A stretch of 64,000 nt of DNA from Candidatus Kaiserbacteria bacterium (lineage in GTDB: Bacteria > Patescibacteriota > Minisyncoccia > Phycocordibacterales > Phycocordibacteraceae), in NCBI GenBank assembly GCA_016182485.1, contig JACPGH010000005.1, positions 305 to 64,304 of the forward strand. The letters run 5' to 3'. The position numbers were made by a program, and so were the translations under genes. The notes beneath the pieces were generated by a model. That model did no database searches. It was not told the DNA's origin and saw only the letters and a program-made list of their open reading frames with translations. This document shows positions 2,270 to 62,125 of the stretch, piece by piece; the first letter of the stretch is position 1; each line of letters starts with the position of its first letter.

Positions 2270-3952
2270 ATGAAAGAAGCAGAGACAGAAGAGAAGGACT
2301 ACGAGACTCTCTCCTTGGACCCCGGCATCTTCACCGATTCAACGCGCGTCCTGACCTCCAAGGAACAGGCGAGGCGCCAGCGCTTGCTCGCAGCGCTGGC
2401 AAAGAGTTCGGAGCTCCTCGCCATAGAAAAAAGCATCGATTCAATTCTCGAGGGGATCGCGCAAAGCGTCGGCAGAGCTTTGGACGCAAAGTACGTGAAT
2501 TTCTGGGATTTCACCCCGGACAAGAAAGGCGTCTATATCCGCGCGGCGTACGGCATGCAGCAGCAATACCTCGAACATTCAAAACGCGTCCCCCTGCTCC
2601 TTGGGACTGCTTGGATAGGACGCGCTATGCAGACTGGCAAGATATGGGCGACCTCGAACGTTCAAAAAGATCCTCTCCTTCCCTCCTCGTGGCTTCCGGC
2701 GGTGGAGCGGCAAGGATACCACGGGCTTGTCTGCACGCCGCTTAAGATCAAGGATCGCATCATCGGCGGCATGTGCATTTATTACGACGATATCCATGAA
2801 TTCGAACCGTTCGAGATGACCATAGCGGGCATCGTCGCCAACCAAGCGGCGACCGCAGTCGAGAACAGCCGCATTTTCGTCGAGCTCGAGGCGGAGCGCC
2901 GCAAGACGCTTTCCATCGTGCAGAGCCTGAACGACGGCCTTATCATGTACGACTTGCAGGGCGTCATAATATTCTTCAACTCGAGAGCCGAAGCGCTTCT
3001 GGGGCTCGCCGCAAAGGAGGTCGTCGGCATATGCCCCTCCGTTTCTTTTGCCGAAGGCCATATACATCGCGAGAACCTGCTTTCCATATACAGCCGGCCG
3101 CAGTCCGATTATGAGAATTGGGAGTTCAGTACGGATAAACCCTGCCGCCTAGTTCTGTTGATCACCAGGATCCCTGTCCGGGATGAATTGGGACAGCAAA
3201 TCGGCATGGTGCAGGTACTGCATGACGTGACGCACGAGCGGGAAGTGGAGCAATTGAAGGCGAACTTCCTCACGACGGCATCCCATCAGCTGCGTACGCC
3301 GCTTGCCGGGATCAAATGGGCGCTCGAAGCATTGCACAAGGATAGCGCCGGTTTCACTCCCTCCCAAAAGGCTCTCGTGGAGGAGACCGCTAAGACGAAT
3401 CAGAATCTCATAACCCTCATAAACGACCTGCTCGACGTTTCCCGCATAGAGGAAAACAAGCTTGGCTGCATTTTGACGGAGACGGATCTCGTCGCGCTCG
3501 CGAAGGAGGCCGTCAGCGAATTCAAGGAAGAGGCGACCCGCCTAGGCATCACGCTCGACCTAACTGCGCCGGACCATGCGCTTTCCGCAGTGAGCGTCGA
3601 CAGGGAGAAAATGATGCTCGCCGTGGGCAACCTGATAGACAACGCGATCAAATACACCCCGGAGGGAGGAACCGTCTCCGTTACCCTTGAAGAAAAGGAC
3701 GGATCGCTCTCGCTTTCGGTACGGGATACCGGGATCGGCATAGCCGAAAAGGACCAGGCGTTCCTTTTCAACAAATTTTTCCGCTCTCCGAACGCCGTCC
3801 TTAAGGAGACGGCGGGATCCGGCCTAGGCCTGTATATCGCAAAGCAGATCGTAGAGATCAATCACGGAACCCTGCGTTTCGCTTCACGCCTTGGAGAAGG
3901 CTCGACGTTCTCGATCGAGTTGCCGATTGCCCCTACTCTCAAACAGGCTTAA
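2270..3952 (+). CDS. Sensor histidine kinase with GAF and PAS domains
   Basis: H-box SHQLRTPLAGIKW, N/G1/G2 boxes (IDNAIKYT, DTGIGI, GSGLGL); N-terminal GAF-like and PAS-like regions. Confidence 0.85.
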   Translation: MKEAETEEKDYETLSLDPGIFTDSTRVLTSKEQARRQRLLAALAKSSELLAIEKSIDSILEGIAQSVGRALDAKYVNFWDFTPDKKGVYIRAAYGMQQQYLEHSKRVPLLLGTAWIGRAMQTGKIWATSNVQKDPLLPSSWLPAVERQGYHGLVCTPLKIKDRIIGGMCIYYDDIHEFEPFEMTIAGIVANQAATAVENSRIFVELEAERRKTLSIVQSLNDGLIMYDLQGVIIFFNSRAEALLGLAAKEVVGICPSVSFAEGHIHRENLLSIYSRPQSDYENWEFSTDKPCRLVLLITRIPVRDELGQQIGMVQVLHDVTHEREVEQLKANFLTTASHQLRTPLAGIKWALEALHKDSAGFTPSQKALVEETAKTNQNLITLINDLLDVSRIEENKLGCILTETDLVALAKEAVSEFKEEATRLGITLDLTAPDHALSAVSVDREKMMLAVGNLIDNAIKYTPEGGTVSVTLEEKDGSLSLSVRDTGIGIAEKDQAFLFNKFFRSPNAVLKETAGSGLGLYIAKQIVEINHGTLRFASRLGEGSTFSIELPIAPTLKQA

Positions 3953-4509
3953 GCCGTTTCCTTATCGAAGACGGTTCTCTGCGCGGCGCCGTACACGCCT
4001 TCGCCGGCAAGGATCACGCGGCGCAAGAAGGCCGTTGCGAGCCCGATGAGGAGACCGAGGAGAATTAGCGCGCCGTACGGCAGCATGGCCCTAAACGCCA
4101 CTTCGAGAGAATACGCTCCGGCAAATCCGCCGAAGACATACGCGAAGTAGCCGGCGTACGAGAAGAAGTAGGCGGGCGCAAGCTCGAAGAGACTGGTGAG
4201 CTCGAGCATGACGATCGTGAAGGCGACGAAGAATACAGTGAGCGGCAAGGCCCACGTGCCTCCCGAGTAGGTGCTGATCTGCGGAGCGACCCAGAGCGTC
4301 ACATAGCCGAACACAATGCCGCCCAAGAGACCGACGATTTCTTTCGGGAGCCGCCTGAGTTTCGTGGCATCTGGGTCGTAGACGAAGTACATCGGCCAGC
4401 TGATGAACGGCACCCACAACGCGAGGCTATAATACTGCCCGGCGACGATCCACAGAGCGGCAACCAGAGCGACAATGAGCGCGACCGGAATAAATTTGGC
4501 AACAGTCAT
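3949..4509 (-). CDS. Polytopic membrane protein (DUF1097-like?)
   Basis: 5-6 predicted TM helices, no catalytic motifs recognised. Confidence 0.55.
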   Translation of the reverse strand: MTVAKFIPVALIVALVAALWIVAGQYYSLALWVPFISWPMYFVYDPDATKLRRLPKEIVGLLGGIVFGYVTLWVAPQISTYSGGTWALPLTVFFVAFTIVMLELTSLFELAPAYFFSYAGYFAYVFGGFAGAYSLEVAFRAMLPYGALILLGLLIGLATAFLRRVILAGEGVYGAAQRTVFDKETA

Positions 4510-4547
4510 ATTCGTAGTTTATTCGTAAATAATGGCACTGGGACCGG

Positions 4548-4949
4548 TCAAGGGCCCGCATGCCGGCTCACGATATCCTCGACTTTCCCAGTTATCTCCT
4601 CTATCAAGCTGTTTGCTTTGACCAGATAGCCGGCCGCGCCCAGATCAAGGCCGCGCTTTATTTCCTCTTTGCTGCCCAGATTTGAGAGAATGAGGATTGG
4701 GATAGATTTCGTCGATTCTCCTCTTTTCAGCTCGCCCAAAATATCGAAGCCGTTGGCCCCGGGCAAGACAATGTCAAGGAGCACGATATCCGGCTTCCAG
4801 GACTGCACCTTTTCTACGACCTGCCTCCCATCCGTAATAAGATCGACGTCAAACCCTTCCTCGCGCAAATGGTTCGTGAGTACACCCGACAGGAGAGAAT
4901 CATCTTCTACGAGCACTACTCTGCCTTTCTTGCCTTCTGCCGGTGCCAT
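4548..4949 (-). CDS. Single-domain response regulator (CheY-like receiver)
   Basis: VVLVEDD...DIVLLDIVLP...ILILSNLG...GAAGYLVK receiver signature; no output domain. Confidence 0.8.
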   Translation of the reverse strand: MAPAEGKKGRVVLVEDDSLLSGVLTNHLREEGFDVDLITDGRQVVEKVQSWKPDIVLLDIVLPGANGFDILGELKRGESTKSIPILILSNLGSKEEIKRGLDLGAAGYLVKANSLIEEITGKVEDIVSRHAGP

Positions 4950-5002
4950 TCTTTCATTATACGAGCGCGGGGGAGGCTTGCGGGAGCTATCAACAGCACT
5001 GT

Positions 5003-5683
5003 TCAGGCGCGGGAGCTGGCATCCGAAAGGATCAGGCCGTCGTCCATCTTCACGATCCGGCCGGTAACGCGGGCGTATTCCTCCTCGTGAGTGACCATGA
5101 TGATCGTCTGCCCGACGGCGTGGAGCTCCTTGAATATCCCGATGACGCGAGCGGAGGACTCGCGGTCGAGATTGGCGGTTGGCTCGTCGGCAAAAAGCAC
5201 TTTCGGATCGTGCGCGATCGCCCGGGCGATCGAGACGCGCTGCTGCTCGCCGCCCGAGAGCTGGGAAGGCAGGTTCAGAAGCCGGGGGAGCAGTCCGACG
5301 CGCGAGAGCGCCGCCGTGGCCTTCGAGCGGGCGGCTTCCTTCGCGTATCCCTGCATAAGGAGCGGCAGCATGACGTTCTCGAGCGCGGAGAGTTCCGGCA
5401 AGAGCGCGTAGTCCTGAAAAACGTAGCCGAAAGAAAGCAGACGTATCTTGATCTCCTCGTTCTGGCTCATGAGACGGGTCGAACGCCCTTCGACGAACAC
5501 GTCCCCTCCCGAGGGCTCGTCGAGAAGCGACAGCTGATAAAGCAGCGTGCTCTTCCCCGCCCCCGAGCGGCCCATGATAGCGACGAATTCTCCCTGCGCG
5601 ACCTTAATATCTATGCCTTTAAGCACCCGCGTTTCGCGCTCGCCGTCTTTAAAACTCTTCACCAGCTGTTTGGCTTCAATCAT
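5003..5683 (-). CDS. ABC transporter ATP-binding protein (MacB/LolD-like)
   Basis: Walker [10 protein letters not shown], signature [14 protein letters not shown], Walker B LFADEPT. Confidence 0.9.
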
Positions 5684-5778
5684 GGTTCGACTACGCTCAC
5701 CATAAATGTTCGACTTTGCTCACCATAATGGTTCGACTACGCTCACCATAAAATGTTCGACTTTGCTCACCATAAATA
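5684..5778 (-). repeat. Four tandem ~23-bp repeats (minus: ATGGTGAGCRWAGTCGAACMWTT) filling the entire permease-ATPase intergenic gap
   Basis: Units catggttcgactacgctcac / cataaatgttcgactttgctcac alternate A-B-A-B; each carries ATG and a GGTGAG SD-like core; encode mini-ORFs [33 protein letters not shown] whose last TGA overlaps the ATPase ATG. Confidence 0.85.
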
Positions 5779-7038
5779 TCAATTGCGTCCGAGAATGGAA
5801 TCGAGCGTATTCTTGCGCACGATCATCCGCGCCGGAAGATAGCCGGCGATAATGGTCGTGAGTGTGAGGATCGCGATGCGTATGAGTGTATCTGGGACCG
5901 GCGCGACGAGGATGGCGTTGCTGATCGGCAGGCTGATCGGATGCGCGGAAATATACGGAACGAGAAATCCGTACAGTATGGCGAATCCGATACCGCTGCC
6001 GATAATCGCGTAAAAAAGGGATTGGCAGACATAGGAAAACTCGATCGCCTCGCCCGATATGCCGATGCCCTTCAAGATGCCTATGAATTTCCGCCGCGTG
6101 AGCGCGTTGATGAATATGACGATGAAGATAGTTATCGCGGCGACGGCGAGGCCCACCGAGCCGATCGCGTTGCCGATGGCGGCGAACGTATTCGTGATCT
6201 CCGCGATCCCGTTCGGAATCGCGTCGAGGAAGGACTGCACCTTGGCGTCTTCGCCGAGGCCGCTTCGCAGGAGAAGGTCCCGGAAGGCTTCCGCGTCGGC
6301 TCCCGGCGCGAGCTTGATGGCGATCTCGTCCACGTTCTGATCGGTCCGCCCGGCGAGCTGGGCGAGCTCGCGCTCTAGCATAAAGACCTTGAGCGCGAGC
6401 GGCGAATTCGCCGTAGTGACGAGAATGCCCTTCACCGTAACGATTCGAGTGGACCCGTTTACCGTAAGCCGTATCTTCGTGCCCGGATAGACATTTTTCA
6501 GGGGCGTTAGCGTGGGCATTTCCCCGAAAGAATAGCGGTCCACGAACTGCGAGCCGAGTAGGACGGCATCATAATCGCCGGGCGAGAGATATTCGCCCTC
6601 GGCGACATACTTCGCCAAACCGGAGAATTTATTCTCGGCGACCGGCTCTATGCCGGTGATAGAAGCCGAGGTCGAGTTGGGCTTCTCGGAAAAATCCGTG
6701 CGGTTCTGATAATTCGCTTCGAGCGTGCCGCCCGCGATAGTCCGGTACGCGATCTTCTCCGCCTCCGGCAGGCTGCGGACTAGGGAAAGGATCTCCTGGC
6801 TGTTACCGATGTAATCTTCCGTGGCCAGCGCGGAGAGATACACGTCCCCGGTTTCGAGCAGCCGGAACTGGTCCGTGATGCCCTGCACAATGCCTACCAA
6901 GATGCCCGTCACGATGACGAGATTTAGGAAGGTGAGCAGCATCACGAAGACGATGAGCGAGGTCGTCCAAAGGCTCGCGCGGCGTATCTGCCGCACGGCG
7001 AGAAACCAGCCGACGCGGATATTGGTAAGCGAGAACAT
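5779..7038 (-). CDS. ABC transporter permease, FtsX/MacB-like
   Basis: N-terminal TM, large periplasmic domain, C-terminal 3-TM FtsX-like bundle; operon with ATPase and HlyD adaptor. Confidence 0.85.
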   Translation of the reverse strand: MFSLTNIRVGWFLAVRQIRRASLWTTSLIVFVMLLTFLNLVIVTGILVGIVQGITDQFRLLETGDVYLSALATEDYIGNSQEILSLVRSLPEAEKIAYRTIAGGTLEANYQNRTDFSEKPNSTSASITGIEPVAENKFSGLAKYVAEGEYLSPGDYDAVLLGSQFVDRYSFGEMPTLTPLKNVYPGTKIRLTVNGSTRIVTVKGILVTTANSPLALKVFMLERELAQLAGRTDQNVDEIAIKLAPGADAEAFRDLLLRSGLGEDAKVQSFLDAIPNGIAEITNTFAAIGNAIGSVGLAVAAITIFIVIFINALTRRKFIGILKGIGISGEAIEFSYVCQSLFYAIIGSGIGFAILYGFLVPYISAHPISLPISNAILVAPVPDTLIRIAILTLTTIIAGYLPARMIVRKNTLDSILGRN

Positions 7039-7040
7039 AC

Positions 7041-8555
7041 TTACGGCAGTAGCGGCGAGAGCCGAATCACGTCGCCCTCCTCGAGCCCCGACACGATCTC
7101 TATCTGTCCGGTCGAGGGAATCCTGCCGGTTGTCACCGGGCGGTTCTCGGTACGCCCGTCTACGACAACTGTCACAAATTTGCCAAGAACACCTTCTCCC
7201 ACGGCTCCGATCGGTATGACGATCGCGCCCGAGAGCGTACCGGTCGTGATAACGACATCCGCCGTCATACCGCTCCGGATGCGTGAGTCTCTAGATAAAA
7301 AAGCGAGGGTCGTTTTATACGTGGGAACGCCGTCTTTAACGGTTTCTGCCGGATCGACCGCGATTACTTTCGCAGGGAAAGCGGCTCCGGAACCGTATGC
7401 GTCTAACGTCGTCGTCGCCGTATTGCCGACCGTGACCGTTCCGATGGCGACTTCGGGAACGAACGTCTCTATCTGAAAGAGCCCGTCGCTCTGCATGGAG
7501 ATCAGGGCGTCCGACGGCGATACTATGGAGCCGGCTTTAGCGTCCATACGCGTCACTATGCCGTCAAAAGGCGCTACGACGCGCGTCTCCGCGAGCGCGG
7601 CCGCCGCGCTCGCCACCTCCGCCTGCGCCGCGGCCACCGCCGCTTCTTCGGCGGCGACCGCTTCGAGCGTCGGACCCGCTTGCTTGAGCGCGAGCGTTTT
7701 TTCCGCCGAGTCGAGAGTAGCGCTGTCGGCAGTTATGGCAGCGGCGGCCGCGTTTATGCTCGTACGGCCGGCGGCGATATCAGTACCGTACGATGTGAGC
7801 GACGCCGCCGTAACAGTGCCGCTCGGCAATCCCTGATTTACCGCCGCGCTTGCATCATTTAAGAGCGCCAGCACCCGCGCAAGGTAGGCTTGCGCCTGTT
7901 TGGCCGAGGCGGCGGCGTTGTCATTCGTCAATCGCGCGACCATGAGCGCCCAAGCCGCGAGCGTCTCCTCGACTGCGACACGGTCGCGCTCGAGCGCCGA
8001 CTTGAGAGTCATATTAGAAACAAGGAAGGTAATCCTCGGATCTTTTGACCGAGAGTCGGAAAAGAACTGATCCACCTTCGTGCGCACAGTATCGTCGGCA
8101 GTCGTATAAGCGCTTCGGATGGAGTCGAGAAGCCCGGCGCGCGCGTTCGTGACCGCGATAGCGGCCACCGCGACTTCTTCAGATCGCGTCCCGGCTTTAA
8201 GCGAAGCCAGATCCGCCTGCGCCTTCTTGAGCGCCGCCTGTTTCTGCGAAAGAGCCGCGGCCAGATCGCCGTTCTCGATCTGAGCAAGCATGGTGCCCGC
8301 ACGCACTCTTTGGCCGACTGCGGCGTAGGTACCGGAAATTCGACCGTTCGCCGCGAATCCCAGGCGGACGTCCTGCTTGGCGGTTACGGTCCCTGACACG
8401 TTTACCCGCTCGACGACGTTTGCGCGGCGTACGGAGAGCGTGGCTCCCGAGGCGCCTCCCCTGCCGAAAAAGAACCAGGCAAGGAAAAGGACTACCGCCA
8501 GAGCGAGCGCGTAGCGCCATCCTCGAGCTGCCAATCGACGGAGGGAGAGAATCAT
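7041..8555 (-). CDS. HlyD/MacA-family periplasmic adaptor (membrane fusion protein) with unusually long Ala-rich coiled-coil hairpin
   Basis: N-terminal TM anchor, biotinyl-lipoyl-like and beta-barrel segments, ~250-aa AQ-rich helical insertion. Confidence 0.8.
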   Translation of the reverse strand: MILSLRRLAARGWRYALALAVVLFLAWFFFGRGGASGATLSVRRANVVERVNVSGTVTAKQDVRLGFAANGRISGTYAAVGQRVRAGTMLAQIENGDLAAALSQKQAALKKAQADLASLKAGTRSEEVAVAAIAVTNARAGLLDSIRSAYTTADDTVRTKVDQFFSDSRSKDPRITFLVSNMTLKSALERDRVAVEETLAAWALMVARLTNDNAAASAKQAQAYLARVLALLNDASAAVNQGLPSGTVTAASLTSYGTDIAAGRTSINAAAAAITADSATLDSAEKTLALKQAGPTLEAVAAEEAAVAAAQAEVASAAAALAETRVVAPFDGIVTRMDAKAGSIVSPSDALISMQSDGLFQIETFVPEVAIGTVTVGNTATTTLDAYGSGAAFPAKVIAVDPAETVKDGVPTYKTTLAFLSRDSRIRSGMTADVVITTGTLSGAIVIPIGAVGEGVLGKFVTVVVDGRTENRPVTTGRIPSTGQIEIVSGLEEGDVIRLSPLLP

Positions 8556-8632
8556 CAGCTGGAGTCTACCACTGCCGGCATTTATGTAAAAAGTCGGACG
8601 GCGCCCAGAGCACGTCGAGTATACTAAGGGTA

Positions 8633-11016
<2,384 letters not shown>

Positions 11017-11042
11017 CTAGTTGCTGGAAGCTGGTAAATTCT

Positions 11043-19599: not shown

Positions 19600-19665
19600 G
19601 GTATACCACGTCGAATAAGGTGCGGTGAACCGGCCCGAAATTTGGTAGACTAAAGCGGCTACACC

Positions 19666-28743: not shown

Positions 28744-28821
28744 TTTATAGCAAGATAGGCGTTAGGCGCTAGGCTTTAGCAATAACGTATTCGCTAGAGC
28801 CTAATGCCTAGTGCCTGAATT

Positions 28822-32567: not shown

Positions 32568-32600
32568 TTTTCTATATTTAAATGTTAAAAATATTTGAAT

Positions 32601-32951
32601 TTAAAATATAAGCCCGCCTGCGCGCGCCGCCTCCGCAAGCATCTGCACATGCCCGCCATAGCGGTAGCCGCCGCGATCGAAGACGACCGACTTCACGCCG
32701 AGGTCCTTGGCCGCTTTCGCTATCGCCTCGCCTACCGCCTTCGCCTGCACGGATTGAGAGCCTTTGAACGTACGCCCGTGCGCCGAAGCGACAGTCCTCC
32801 GCCTCGCGTCATCGATGAGTTGCGCGGAAACGAACTGATTCGACTTGTATACGGAAAGCCGCGGACGCTCGCTCGTCCCGACAATTTTTGCGCGTATGCG
32901 CTTGTGGCGGCGCTTCCTGAGTTCGTTCTTGGATTTGAATTTGTGTTGCAT
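32601..32951 (-). CDS. rplR: 50S ribosomal protein L18
   Basis: L18 signature RPRLSVYKSNQFVSAQLIDD. Confidence 0.9.
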   Translation of the reverse strand: MQHKFKSKNELRKRRHKRIRAKIVGTSERPRLSVYKSNQFVSAQLIDDARRRTVASAHGRTFKGSQSVQAKAVGEAIAKAAKDLGVKSVVFDRGGYRYGGHVQMLAEAARAGGLIF

Positions 32952-32984
32952 GTTTTTTGCTAGAGCCTAGCGCCTAAAGCCTAG

Positions 32985-34853: not shown

Positions 34854-34885
34854 AATTAAATATTTAAATATTTAAATATTTAAAG
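34854..34885. repeat. (TTAAATAT)x3-4 tandem octamer repeat in rplX-rplE spacer
   Basis: attaaatatttaaatatttaaatatttaaagc directly upstream of rplE ATG. Confidence 0.7.
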
Positions 34886-35149
34886 CTACTTGCTTTTGCC
34901 CTTCGGCGCACCGAACGCCGATTCGACCTTTCCCTTCCCCGTGCGCACGACATTGCTCGCGTCTATCGGGCGCGGGCGCTCTACAATGCGCCCTACCTTG
35001 CCCGCGGCGCCCTTAAGGTGCCGCTTCGCGAGCGCGACGCCTTCTACGACGACCTTGTTCTCGCGCGGCAGGGCGCGCAGGATTACTCCGGACTTTCCTT
35101 TGTCCTTGCCGGTAATCACTTTCACGGAATCGCCTTTTTTAATTTTCAT
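34886..35149 (-). CDS. rplX: 50S ribosomal protein L24
   Basis: KOW motif MKIKKGDSVKVITGKDKGKSGVI. Confidence 0.9.
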   Translation of the reverse strand: MKIKKGDSVKVITGKDKGKSGVILRALPRENKVVVEGVALAKRHLKGAAGKVGRIVERPRPIDASNVVRTGKGKVESAFGAPKGKSK

Positions 35150-35551: not shown

Positions 35552-35568
35552 AGGTAGATAAGTAGGCT

Positions 35569-35847
35569 CTAGGCTCTAGGCTCTAGGCTGATACGGAAAT
35601 GCTTGCGTTTTGAAATGGGTCGCGTAGCCACAATGGTGACTTTATCGCCTACCTGCGCGGCATTGCCTGGATTGTGGGCGAGAAATTTTTTCGAACGAAC
35701 AAGGTATTTCTTGTATTTCGGGTGCTTCTCGAAGCGGTCGACCCGCACGGTGGCCGTCTCCTGCATGGCCGTCTTGACGACGGTTCCGACGAACGATTGA
35801 GGTCGACCCTGAACGGAGCGAGCGAGGCGAGTGAGTTTTTGTTCCAT
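35569..35847 (-). CDS. rpsQ: 30S ribosomal protein S17
   Basis: OB-fold S17 signature; 3' end contains (GGCTCTA)x3 tandem. Confidence 0.9.
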   Translation of the reverse strand: MEQKLTRLARSVQGRPQSFVGTVVKTAMQETATVRVDRFEKHPKYKKYLVRSKKFLAHNPGNAAQVGDKVTIVATRPISKRKHFRISLEPRA

Positions 35848-37230: not shown

Positions 37231-37239
37231 AGCTAGAGC

Positions 37240-37569
37240 CTAGTGCCTAGAGCCTAGTTCCACGGTAATGCGGCTCTTGCGCCGGCGGATGAGCGCGGCG
37301 CTGCCGCGCGCGCGAGGCATGTACTTCTTGAGCATTCCGGCGCTGCCCACCGTGACGCTCTTCACGACGAGCGTCTCCGCATCTACCCCCTGTGCCTTAG
37401 CGTTCGCCGCGGCGCTCTCTATAAGCTTTTTCATGGGTTCGGCCGCGCGCTTGGGAAGGAACGCGAGCGAAGCAAGCGCATGAGGCACCTTCTTTCCCTT
37501 CACTAGGTCGGCGACGAGCCGGACCTTGCGGGGCGACTGGTTATAGCTTTTGAGCGAGGCAGTAGCCAT
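37240..37569 (-). CDS. rplV: 50S ribosomal protein L22
   Basis: L22 signature. Confidence 0.9.
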   Translation of the reverse strand: MATASLKSYNQSPRKVRLVADLVKGKKVPHALASLAFLPKRAAEPMKKLIESAAANAKAQGVDAETLVVKSVTVGSAGMLKKYMPRARGSAALIRRRKSRITVELGSRH

Positions 37570-39248: not shown

Positions 39249-39284
39249 AAAACTAGTGGCTAGGTGCTAGTAACTGGAGACTAG

Positions 39285-41583: not shown

Positions 41584-41742
41584 GCAATCCTCCGGGAAAG
41601 AATTTGTACATCCTCGAAAATCCTACCTATCAAATTCTTCAGTTTTTGTGAATCAAGAGAGGCGCCCTAGTGCCTAGAATTTAGATCATCTTCTAGTCTG
41701 CTTCCTTTTCTTCATGTTCGTTATTTTGCATGGTCGTGAGAC

Positions 41743-43127: not shown

Positions 43128-43200
43128 GCGTGCTAGCGCCTAGTCCCTAGCCGTTTAAATCATCTTCCCCGCTTCGCTAAAGCTACTCGGGGCACGCACG

Positions 43201-43611: not shown

Positions 43612-43657
43612 GTGGCTGGTTTGCTAGTAACTAGTTTCTAGTCACTAGTTAACTAGT
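43612..43657. repeat. ACTAGT-rich spacer (5x CTAGT within 46 nt) between tuf stop and rpsJ start
   Basis: tggctggtttgctagtaactagtttctagtcactagttaactagtc; TAG in all three frames. Confidence 0.7.
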
Positions 43658-48421: not shown

Positions 48422-48537
48422 AAATAAGAATTATAAATCCCGACGTTGGCAGTCGGGATGCCGACTTTGCGTCAGTGTTGAACACACAATAAATGAAAGA
48501 CTGATGAAATGCAAAGCGCTGGCGTATACTAGATGAA

Positions 48538-50714: not shown

Positions 50715-50742
50715 TGTATTTCTAAAGCCTAGTGCCTAGAGC

Positions 50743-51150
50743 CTATTTCGGCCTCTTAGCGCCGTACCGAGAGCGTGCCGTGCGGCGCTTCTCGACGCCG
50801 GACGCATCAAGCTTGCCGCGCACTATCGTATACTGGACGCCGATATCCTTCACGCGGCCGCCGCGCAGCATTACAACAGAGTGCTCCTGTAGATTGTGGC
50901 CCATGCCAGGAATATAGGCGGTTACCTCCATCCCGTTCGTCAGCCGCACGCGCGCGATCTTGCGGATAGCGGAGTTCGGCTTGCGCGGCGTCTTCGTCGT
51001 CACCTTCGTAGCTACGCCACGTTTGAAGGGAGAAGGATAATAAGTCGGCCGGTTCTCGAGGGAGTTGAATCCGCGGGCAAGCGCAGGCACGCTCGTCTTG
51101 AACGGCCTCTGCTTGCGCCCTTTTTTAGTAAGCTGATTGATAGTGGACAT
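50743..51150 (-). CDS. rpsL: 30S ribosomal protein S12
   Basis: S12 signature incl. PNSA(I/L)RK. Confidence 0.97.
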
Positions 51151-61284: not shown

Positions 61285-61761
61285 CTAGTCTTTCTTTTCA
61301 ACGACCTGCCCGTTCGGAAGCCGCACGTAACCGGCTTTCATGATCATTTCTCCAACGATATCGCGCGGCGCTTCCCTTTTTAATTGCGAACCCGACATGC
61401 CGCCAATTTTTACCCTCTTAGCGAAGCTCGCGATGAGCCGGCTGCATTCCTCGGCAAGCGAATTTAAATGTTTAAACGTTTCAATATTTAAATATCCTAT
61501 GTCAGAAGCGACATATAACTGGGCGCGCACTTCCCCGGCGGACGCCTTAGCGATGTACAAATAATTCAAGAATTCGTACTTTGTGCCGCTCTCAAATCCT
61601 TCCGCTATGTTGGAGACGATCGATACCGATGCGCGCTGAATTTGGTCGCGGAAGCCGTTGTCTCTGCACGCTGTGAACGCTTTATAAACAAGTTTCGTGA
61701 GCTCACGCGCTTTCTTAAACATCATTAGGTCTTCAAATCTTTGTATGGTTGCCATCTTCAA
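61285..61761 (-). CDS. Four-helix-bundle protein (23S rRNA intervening-sequence protein family)
   Basis: Conserved IVSNIAEGF...Y..A.(S/G)S..E family signature; TTG or ATG (61755) start; AT-rich relative to surroundings. Confidence 0.75.
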   Translation of the reverse strand: MKMATIQRFEDLMMFKKARELTKLVYKAFTACRDNGFRDQIQRASVSIVSNIAEGFESGTKYEFLNYLYIAKASAGEVRAQLYVASDIGYLNIETFKHLNSLAEECSRLIASFAKRVKIGGMSGSQLKREAPRDIVGEMIMKAGYVRLPNGQVVEKKD

Positions 61762-61835
61762 ATGTTTAAATGTTTAAATGTTTAAATGTTTAAATGTTTA
61801 AATGTTTAAATGTTTAAATGTTTAAATGTTTAAAT
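61760..61835. repeat. (AAATGTTT)x9 perfect tandem octamer repeat abutting the start of the four-helix-bundle gene
   Basis: aaatgtttaaatgttt... 72 bp, then aaatttc. Confidence 0.9.
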
Positions 61836-61847
61836 TTCTGCGAATAA

Positions 61848-62096: not shown

Positions 62097-62125
62097 AATT
62101 TACATTTTTACATATTTAAATATTT

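Follow-up and report, generated by a model that had tools for sequence, protein, structure and literature searches.

The spacer and its operon

The 64,000-nucleotide (nt) window analysed here, a stretch of contig JACPGH010000005.1 from a Candidatus Kaiserbacteria bacterium, carries on its minus strand an exporter operon in which the genes for a MacB/FtsX-type ATP-binding cassette (ABC) permease and an ABC transporter ATPase are separated by a 95-nt spacer (window 5684-5778) composed largely of short tandem repeats. The original prediction, made from the letters of the DNA, had placed these repeats in a gap between an ABC permease and an ATPase gene of a MacAB/HlyD-like exporter operon, and the domain assignments bear this out: the gene order is HlyD-type fusion protein, permease, ATPase (Table 1). 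The permease, which starts 2 nt past the stop of the membrane fusion protein gene (junction TAAGTATG), is 100 % identical to the NCBI entry for an ABC transporter permease of a Candidatus Kaiserbacteria metagenome-assembled genome, and its homologues all belong to the Patescibacteria, or candidate phyla radiation (CPR).

Read on the minus strand, the spacer consists of a 5-nt TATTT leader followed by 90 nt of repeat, in which four units of 24, 23, 23 and 20 nt lie head to tail in the order A-B-A-B. The gap had been described as built entirely from four 23-bp repeats, which is nearly correct, the exceptions being the 5-nt leader and the lengths of the first and last units. Tandem Repeats Finder reports the array both at a period of 23 nt (4.0 copies, 83 % matches, score 135) and at a period of 47 nt (2.0 copies, 97 % matches, score 181). 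In the window, ATGGTGAGCRWAGTCGAAC (19 nt, at most 3 mismatches allowed) matches four times, every time inside the array, as against a mean of 0.04 matches in shuffled sequence (none of 100 shuffles reached four). The identical 95 nt are present in five independent Logan assemblies (L001-L005), so the array is not an assembly artefact. Outside the array, too, these assemblies agree with the window at 99.97-100 % identity and represent one near-clonal population; the nearest relative outside it shows 77 % protein identity. The contigs of L003 and L004 both break near locus position 4802 (window ~5236), ~447 nt into the ATPase gene, and that of L001 begins within the permease, which may reflect strain heterogeneity or a drop in coverage near the locus.

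The array specifies three mini open reading frames (mini-ORFs), which read as had been listed from the sequence, the last TGA overlapping the ATPase ATG. Their arrangement follows from the unit lengths. The period of 23 nt equals 2 mod 3, so that the stop of each mini-ORF is the TGA in the ATGGTGA of the following unit; because unit A1 has 24 nt its reading frame continues through unit B1, where MVSVVEPLW can be read from the ATG at 5749 in the frame of the ORF starting at 5773; and because unit B2 is shortened to 20 nt its TGA falls on the ATPase ATGA. The first ATG of the array lies 5 nt past the permease stop, with no overlap, and each mini-ORF stop lies no more than 7 nt from the following ATG. 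Shuffled versions of the array fold better than the array RNA itself (z = +1.64); of the individual units the B type keeps a weak hairpin, and the A units (-0.4 kcal/mol) have lost the stem.

These dimensions bear on the suggestion that the repeats form a switch, gain or loss of 23-nt units altering ATPase expression. Tandem units of 23 and 47 nt are slippage-prone in principle, and the arrays of mycobacterial interspersed repetitive units (MIRU), to which we return below, are variable-number repeat loci (PMC3184786). However, all five assemblies hold four units and no length heterogeneity was found at consensus level across the five sequencing runs, a weak test in that they sample one near-clonal population, and the addition or removal of one 23-nt unit preserves the stop-to-start geometry, leaving no evident on/off frame logic. 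A phase-variable switch thus finds no support here, and we regard it as very improbable.

Table 1. Features of the operon and of the permease-ATPase spacer (window coordinates)
Feature	Position	Strand	Basis
HlyD-type membrane fusion protein, 504 aa, first gene of the operon	7041..8555	-	HlyD_3 8.7e-15, HlyD_D23 1.5e-14
MacB/FtsX-type ABC permease, 419 aa; FtsX and MacB_PCD domains	5779..7038	-	
ABC transporter ATPase, 226 aa, MIEAKQLV..., ABC_tran domain	5003..5683	-	
Promoter-like site TTTACA-16 nt-(TG)TAGACT	8563..8590	-	promoter prediction
Permease stop TGA	5781-5779	-	sequence
TATTT, putatively what is left of the short ancestral spacer between permease and ATPase; relatives have TACTT, TACGT and TACC	5774..5778	-	filled versus empty junctions
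Unit A1, 24 nt, ATGGTGAGCAAAGTCGAACATTTT	5750..5773	-	sequence, Tandem Repeats Finder, 19-mer matches
Unit B1, 23 nt, ATGGTGAGCGTAGTCGAACCATT; core 18/18 to the family module; weak hairpin AUGGU/ACCAU, -3.6 kcal/mol	5727..5749	-	
Unit A2, 23 nt, ATGGTGAGCAAAGTCGAACATTT	5704..5726	-	sequence, Tandem Repeats Finder, 19-mer matches
Unit B2, 20 nt, ATGGTGAGCGTAGTCGAACC; adjoins the ATPase ATG (5683)	5684..5703	-	sequence and covariance model
Mini-ORF 1, 17 codons; TGA 1 nt past the unit A2 ATG (ATGGTGA)	5720..5773	-	
Mini-ORF 2, MVSKVEHLW*, 9 codons; TGA 1 nt past the unit B2 ATG	5697..5726	-	
Mini-ORF 3, MVSVVEP*, 7 codons; TGA (5682-5680) overlaps the ATPase ATG as ATGA, 4-nt overlap	5680..5703	-	

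A hairpin module shared across phyla

The repeat unit, of about 20 nt, contains an 18-nt core, GGTGAGC-NNA-GTCGAACC, that recurs far beyond this operon. A scan of metagenomes with the pattern GGTGAG-N5-TCGAACCATG returned at least 120 stretches representing at least 116 distinct sites, and the figures in this paragraph refer to the matches listed among them. Positions that the pattern left free proved to be conserved (C6 in 101/116, G10 in 101/116, A9 in 79/116 and T-1 in 111/116, with R at -2 and Y at -3), and this strong conservation of unconstrained positions means that the matches are not chance. The flanks are self-complementary over 3-12 bp, show compensatory changes and extend the GG/CC closure; in the register adopted, 76.6 % of cells are paired, as against at most 46 % in shifted registers, and the covariation score observed is matched by none of 500 shuffles. 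More than 10 unrelated contigs share identical cores, and the host contigs range from 34 to 74 % GC, including Nomurabacteria, Peregrinibacteria and other Patescibacteria.

Elsewhere, a hairpin (T)CATGG...CCATG(A) usually encloses the core, and the canonical element, (T)CATGGTGAGC-NNA-GTCGAACCATGA, carries a start codon at its 5' end and an in-frame TGA that overlaps an ATG at its 3' end, giving a mini-ORF MVSxVEP*. A covariance model (R1) built from 86 metagenome copies recovers unit B2 of the window at 42.7 bits (E = 1.4e-11) and unit B1 at 30.9 bits (E = 1.1e-7); unit B2 satisfies the scan pattern by construction, unit B1 does not. Nothing beyond the B units is found by R1 in the 64-kb window, which thus holds the module at one locus only. 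The B units match the family core at 18/18 positions, and the A units match GGTGAGCAAAGTCGAAC and then lack one C. The GTA variant of the core is also found in L094, L098, L107, L125 and others, and an AAA core in L167 and L178. One host of 72 % GC encodes a NadC closest to that of Armatimonadota and is thus an Armatimonadota-like bacterium. As judged from these matches, the spacer unit is a member of a family present across many unrelated uncultured bacteria and not a local invention. A duplicate of the ATPase 5' end (ATGATTGAAGC versus ATGGTGAGC) was also considered as the source of the unit, and was ruled out by the occurrence of the core in unrelated contexts.

Tandem arrays of the module are not confined to the window: L125 has five units, L146 and L183 three each and L167 two, the L167 pair filling an intergenic gap and adjoining a start codon. 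A copy frequently lies in a cluster together with inverted partners such as GACCC-TTCGAC-NNN-GCTCA-GGGTC. In a subfamily (L187, L098, L107, L173 and others) the module lies within an element of ~90 nt that has terminal inverted repeats, CCACGAAGGACA...TGTCCTTCGTGG, and a second internal hairpin; by its architecture this subfamily suggests that several composite elements resembling miniature inverted-repeat transposable elements (MITEs) include the module as a component.

Searches for a named counterpart or a mobilising partner returned little. Rfam gave no family match for the array region at a permissive E-value, the whole window or 20 module loci, apart from weak chance matches to small nucleolar RNAs (E = 1.8 and 6.7) and one transfer RNA (tRNA) elsewhere; the literature searched with module DNA strings, their reverse complement or the derived peptides yielded no relevant paper; and BLAST of the canonical hairpin against 72,556 plasmids gave near-chance matches only. 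An all-against-all BLAST of the ORFs in the flanks of 120 metagenome copies revealed no recurrent neighbour protein or transposase, only generic ABC-transporter and kinase clusters, and no gene resembling a REP-associated tyrosine transposase (RAYT; REP, repetitive extragenic palindrome). Module DNA probably encodes the junk peptides of the types "VSLSNH" and "PFDKLRANG" that occur in many hypothetical proteins.

Viral contigs contain 103 module matches, whereas a scrambled control gave 18. In reverse complement the commonest core reads GGTTCGACTCCGCTCACC and shares an identical 18 nt with the tRNA-like 3' end (T-arm/acceptor) of the transfer-messenger RNA (tmRNA) of L214, and the matches in the viral contigs L214 (2267-2587), L208, L237 and L242 read TGGTGGA-GGTGAGCGGAGTCGAACC-GCTG, the reverse complement of T-arm, acceptor and CCA. 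ARAGORN finds a permuted tmRNA in L214 only and no tRNA or tmRNA in L208, L237 and L242, the match lying close to where the available sequence stops in both L208 and L242. Since some viral matches look like tmRNA-type 3' ends, the viral enrichment is not clean evidence, and by their likeness to such ends these copies may be prophage attachment sites at tmRNA genes. An origin of the whole family from tRNA was rejected: the family does not keep the T-stem pairing, its position 8 is random and its 3' partner is ATG, not GCT. At those family copies that were run through ARAGORN no tRNA was called, and the tRNA-Ser of the window bears no relation to the module. To judge from the shared 18 nt, the tmRNA resemblance may be ancestral or chance.

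Filled and empty junctions in homologous operons

The same operon was compared in 80 species-representative genomes, whose permeases are 51-77 % identical to that of the window, and in further close relatives, making ~90 operons in all. The permease-ATPase gap in relatives is mostly 1-11 nt and about 70 of the 80 junctions measure no more than 30 nt; the further close relatives P0002, P0005, P0006, P0009, P0010 and P0016 have gaps of 1-7 nt. Given these short gaps, the 95-nt spacer is derived. Among the 80, only L063 has the module at the junction (3737-3774), which reads TAA TACCT GTG-GTGAGTCATATCGAACC-ATG with the segment GTGGTGAGTCATATCGAACC before the ATG; this copy scores 30.8 bits (E = 9e-7) and is the sole match of the covariance model in 479 kb of relatives' DNA. 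A degenerate copy of 23 bits, with the segment GTGGTGAATAACATTGAACC, is present at the L331/L332 junction (2759-2796), TGA ATACTT GTG-GTGAATAACATTGAACC-ATG. The closest relatives of these two lineages, L059/L065 (75 % permease identity) and L329 (89 %), are without the insert. The check proposed with the original prediction, whether related genomes have the repeat between the homologous genes, thus finds single copies in two further lineages and none in nearly all others.

In all three filled lineages the 5' side of the junction retains the ancestral spacer of 5-6 nt (TAYYT; compare TACTT in L030), and a 17-nt insert is flanked on both sides by a start codon (ATG or GTG). The simplest reading of this pattern, as far as aligned junctions allow, is that it is the signature of repeated insertion exactly at the start codon. 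No further copy of the module occurs in ~500 kb of the relatives' flanking DNA, and the distribution suggests, at the level of sequence comparison, that the permease-ATPase junction is a preferred site of the module.

The same junction is enlarged to gaps of 45-180 nt by unrelated short repeats or hairpins in L019, L020, L039, L048, L068, L076 and L086. The L019 junction holds four copies of TNNNTAAAG, that of L020 holds TAG heptads as an inverted repeat, those of L039 and L048 a CTTGTCCCGTTC...GAACGGGACA hairpin, and that of L086 A/T 8-mers.

Gene starts and translation initiation

The sole promoter-like site predicted in window 4400-8800 lies upstream of the fusion protein gene, and none is predicted inside the array. 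Its -10 box ends 7 nt before the fusion-protein ATG (8555), which makes a leaderless operon mRNA probable. Similar -10-like boxes (TAnnnT; TATAAT, TAGACT, TATACT) are common 6-8 nt before ATG codons elsewhere in the window, for example at 4950-5002, 8556-8590, 19600-19665 and 48422-48537; as read from their spacing they would indicate leaderless mRNAs, and the genome appears to be largely leaderless and independent of Shine-Dalgarno (SD) sequences. Consistent with the latter, SD motifs are not enriched at the 76 gene starts of the window: GGAG, GAGG and AGGA are found at 3-4 % of them as against a background of 6-7 % (GGAG upstream of 4 % as against 7 %). Each unit had been credited with an SD-like GGTGAG. 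This reading fails on the lack of enrichment together with the spacing: from the end of GGTGA it is 13 nt to the ATPase ATG and 16 nt to the ATG of the following unit, as against the 5-10 nt of an SD sequence.

The promoter scan also bears on a role at the DNA level. Four direct repeats spaced by 23-24 bp could form an operator- or iteron-like array of protein-binding sites for a regulator of the exporter, and a histidine kinase and a receiver-only response regulator are encoded just downstream. Yet this response regulator has no DNA-binding domain, there is no promoter in or after the array, relatives are without the array, and the module is found in many unrelated contexts and phyla (at least 116 distinct sites). 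The ubiquity of the module and the lack of a promoter make an operator array unlikely, to the point that we give it almost no credence. A ToxI-like array of a type III toxin-antitoxin system was likewise rejected, the downstream gene encoding an ABC ATPase and not a ToxN-type endoribonuclease.

Across the family, the 3' ATG of the module opens a long ORF in about 20 of the 118 matches listed, and the recognisable real genes that start there include NadC, UppP, FolD and KsgA. Ten were tested, and for 8 of them there is a protein record that begins exactly at the module ATG, independent gene callers having chosen the same start. No association between the module and ABC ATPase starts was seen in metagenomes. 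In L183, which reads MAGEPCRT MAGEPCRT M..., and in L137, where a ProC-like ORF bears a junk-like 25-aa extension, the module or a relative of it apparently forms part of the protein N-terminus, in frame, so the family can distort gene-start calls.

Comparison with known repeat systems

Of the systems known to us through the literature, MIRU is the functionally closest by analogy. According to PMC12548453, start codons are the insertion sites of MIRU, which carry an internal ORF coupled at -4 nt; in the accounts of PMC12548453 and PMC3184786 (after Supply et al. 1997), they are short, often tandem, intra-operon and co-transcribed, and empty homologous sites in relatives suggest insertion. The view taken of them in the same two sources is that coupling makes the insertion harmless. 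The array resembles MIRU in lying inside an operon with one upstream promoter and none of its own, and in the -4 overlap of the MVSVVEP* TGA with the ATPase ATG. It differs in its units of 20-24 nt, set against about 40-100 bp for MIRU (PMC3184786), and in its Kaiserbacteria host, MIRU being confined to Mycobacterium; no sequence relation to MIRU is apparent, the comparison being one of organisation with no direct alignment made. The family core is, moreover, shared across phyla of 34-74 % GC and the host here is an SD-poor CPR bacterium. Copy-number polymorphism between strains, for which MIRU are chiefly used, was not seen among five assemblies that are 99.97-100 % identical and all have four units.

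Structurally, the wider family would be closer to REP, to bacterial interspersed mosaic elements (BIMEs) and to REP doublets forming hairpins (REPINs). Its palindromes are extragenic, single or clustered, in both orientations and found between ABC-transporter cistrons, and it forms inverted doublets with complementary 'loops' (for example L106 and L129) as REPINs do. REPs, in contrast, are species-specific, G+C-rich and RAYT-linked and number hundreds per genome, whereas the module occupies one locus in 64 kb; the module is conserved in the interior of its hairpin and variable in the stem, and in the window the copies are repeated directly and are nearly stemless.

An RNA role of the REP/BIME type, in which intercistronic hairpins stabilise the message of the fusion protein and permease or set the permease:ATPase ratio, could draw on the stable hairpins of family members elsewhere (-10.7 to -16.7 kcal/mol, z = -3 to -4.6), on outer stems that covary and use G-U pairs on the array strand, and on the precedent of REPs between malE and malF and between hisJ and hisQ, intercistronic sites in ABC-transporter operons (PMC3184786). 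The hairpins of the window are, however, degenerate, the weak five-base-pair pairing of the B units being the best of them, so that the array does not form the stable stem-loop that marks REP and BIME, and copies across the family favour neither orientation relative to transcription. As the window copies are almost stemless, such a role is unlikely here, and we consider it improbable.

MITE-like repeats such as Correia/NEMIS and the palindromic elements (RPE) of Rickettsia share with the module that they are non-autonomous, measure tens of bp and can supply or alter gene ends (compare PMC3184786). Unlike them, the module has no recognised terminal inverted repeats of a known insertion sequence family, and its only candidate target-site duplication is a possible 3-nt repeat of ATG.

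Other intergenic repeats in the window

The window is rich in other short repeats. Arrays of at least three TAG-NNNN heptads (mostly GCNCTAG/CTAGNNN) give 17 strand matches at about 11-12 loci in 64 kb, as against 0.24 expected from shuffles and only 3 in 479 kb of relatives; examples lie at 11003-11025, 28756-28816, 32960-32984, 35563-35589, 37233-37257, 39253-39270, 41668-41684, 43133-43150, 43624-43657 and 50722-50745. Several begin in register with the TAG stop of a gene (50715, 43612, 32964, 37234), and at 37233-37257 both of two convergent genes end within one array. As a palindrome, CTAG reads alike on both strands, and 7 nt is not a whole number of codons, so that three heptads place stops in all six frames. 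From this layout the heptads may be multi-frame stop 'bumpers', products of slippage at stop codons, or binding sites; we know of no description of such arrays.

The 44-nt groES-groEL gap (10999-11042) consists in part of CAACTAG x3 on the minus strand and has neither an ATG nor an SD motif, and in the closest relative, L006, the corresponding gap is 1 nt; by this comparison it is a second tight operon junction of this genome that appears enlarged by a tandem repeat. A/T-rich 8-mers, among them TTTAAACA x9.5, ATATTTAA x4 and ATTTACAT x3.5, fill whole gaps at 61762-61847, 62097-62125, 34854-34889, 32568-32610 and 61463-61493, some of them between divergent genes, and may from their composition be related to promoters or UP elements.

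Origin of the spacer

Taken together, these observations lead us to propose that a small dispersed repeat inserted at the ATPase start codon and, once there, multiplied to form the spacer, an account that we hold to be probable though well short of certain. In this model, insertion at the ATPase ATG would have been followed by divergence into the A and B variants (or two insertions would have occurred), and the 97 % identity of the 47-nt A-B super-repeat points to a recent duplication of the A-B dimer as the last step. The element would be tolerated because it brings its own start codon together with an in-frame stop beside the following ATG, in the ATGGTGA and ATGA overlaps. Ribosomes ending at the permease could restart 5 nt on and be handed through three mini-ORFs of 17, 9 and 7 codons to the ATPase ATG, and such a relay would preserve translational coupling over 95 nt in an organism that shows no SD enrichment, depends on tight gene junctions and otherwise keeps this one at 1-8 nt. 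We regard the relay as plausible; given the weakly structured array RNA, direct initiation is also possible.

Several points weigh against this account. Although the re-initiation ladder of the original prediction has its stop/start geometry in place and a precedent in MIRU, translation of the mini-ORFs is a prediction from the sequence. That all four junctions are frame-compatible by chance has, by our own estimate, a probability of ~0.1. The groES-groEL gap and others contain no ATG although the downstream genes must still be translated, so a relay is not strictly needed here. In the wider family, neither the 5' start codon nor the A/ATGA overlap at +21 is enriched in gene-abutting copies (p = 0.14-0.33), which makes these start and stop features intrinsic to the palindromic stem; from the family alignment they would be a pre-adaptation rather than selection shown for coupling. 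The module also has no orientation bias relative to genes, which fits a repeat acting at the DNA level better than an RNA device. With one module locus in 64 kb and no transposase recurring near its copies, mobility is deduced from the distribution of copies, and a single ancestral gain followed by many losses might formally account for the same filled and empty junctions.

The most serious competitor is that the spacer is neutral junk, a module that inserted or arose there and multiplied by replication slippage; ribosomes would then start on the ATPase directly and without an SD sequence, the spacer being unstructured and A/U-rich, and the mini-ORFs would play no part. Such a history would sit well with a window in which many other gaps hold short tandem repeats (TAG heptads, and 8-mers in up to 9.5 copies) and several repeat-filled gaps without any ATG precede essential genes such as groEL, with the enlargement of the same junction by unrelated repeats and hairpins in relatives, with an array that folds worse than its shuffles, and with mini-ORF features that are unenriched at gene-abutting copies. 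It fits less well with the presence of the module at this junction in three lineages and nowhere else in ~500 kb of flanking DNA (p ~0.004 against ~480 other gene starts, a rough estimate), as this recurrence suggests site preference or selection; with the keeping of a start beside a stop at all four unit junctions; and with the retention of the 5' GTG in L331 and L063 despite decay elsewhere. We judge neutral junk to be a real possibility, though on balance an unlikely one.

Insertion at the start codon followed by amplification, our preferred account of this spacer, would also allow a broader and more speculative claim for the whole class: that the modules are undescribed cross-phylum miniature mobile elements that target start codons and act as portable 'start-stop-start' cassettes, in which the built-in mini-ORF keeps coupling and for which this junction is a recurrent landing site. 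We put this forward tentatively and with considerable doubt.

Implications

What is unusual here is the combination of a hairpin interior conserved across phyla with a variable stem, recurrent lodging at a start codon and the biology of the host. The CPR, or Patescibacteria, have tiny, densely packed genomes, and the present one appears to lack SD-led initiation, which leaves the translation of its distal cistrons to be explained. A repeat that settles on start codons and brings its own start and stop would constitute a natural experiment in termination-reinitiation coupling, and would carry the MIRU principle well beyond the mycobacteria. If the modules do act as start-stop-start cassettes, coupling would matter most in SD-less, leaderless lineages such as the CPR. 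For the annotation of metagenomes, the family represents a common, unnamed class of element that is probably creating spurious ORFs and miscalled gene starts. Should the array be only tolerated junk, the spacer would still be explained, and a genome unusually rich in intergenic tandem repeats would have been identified.

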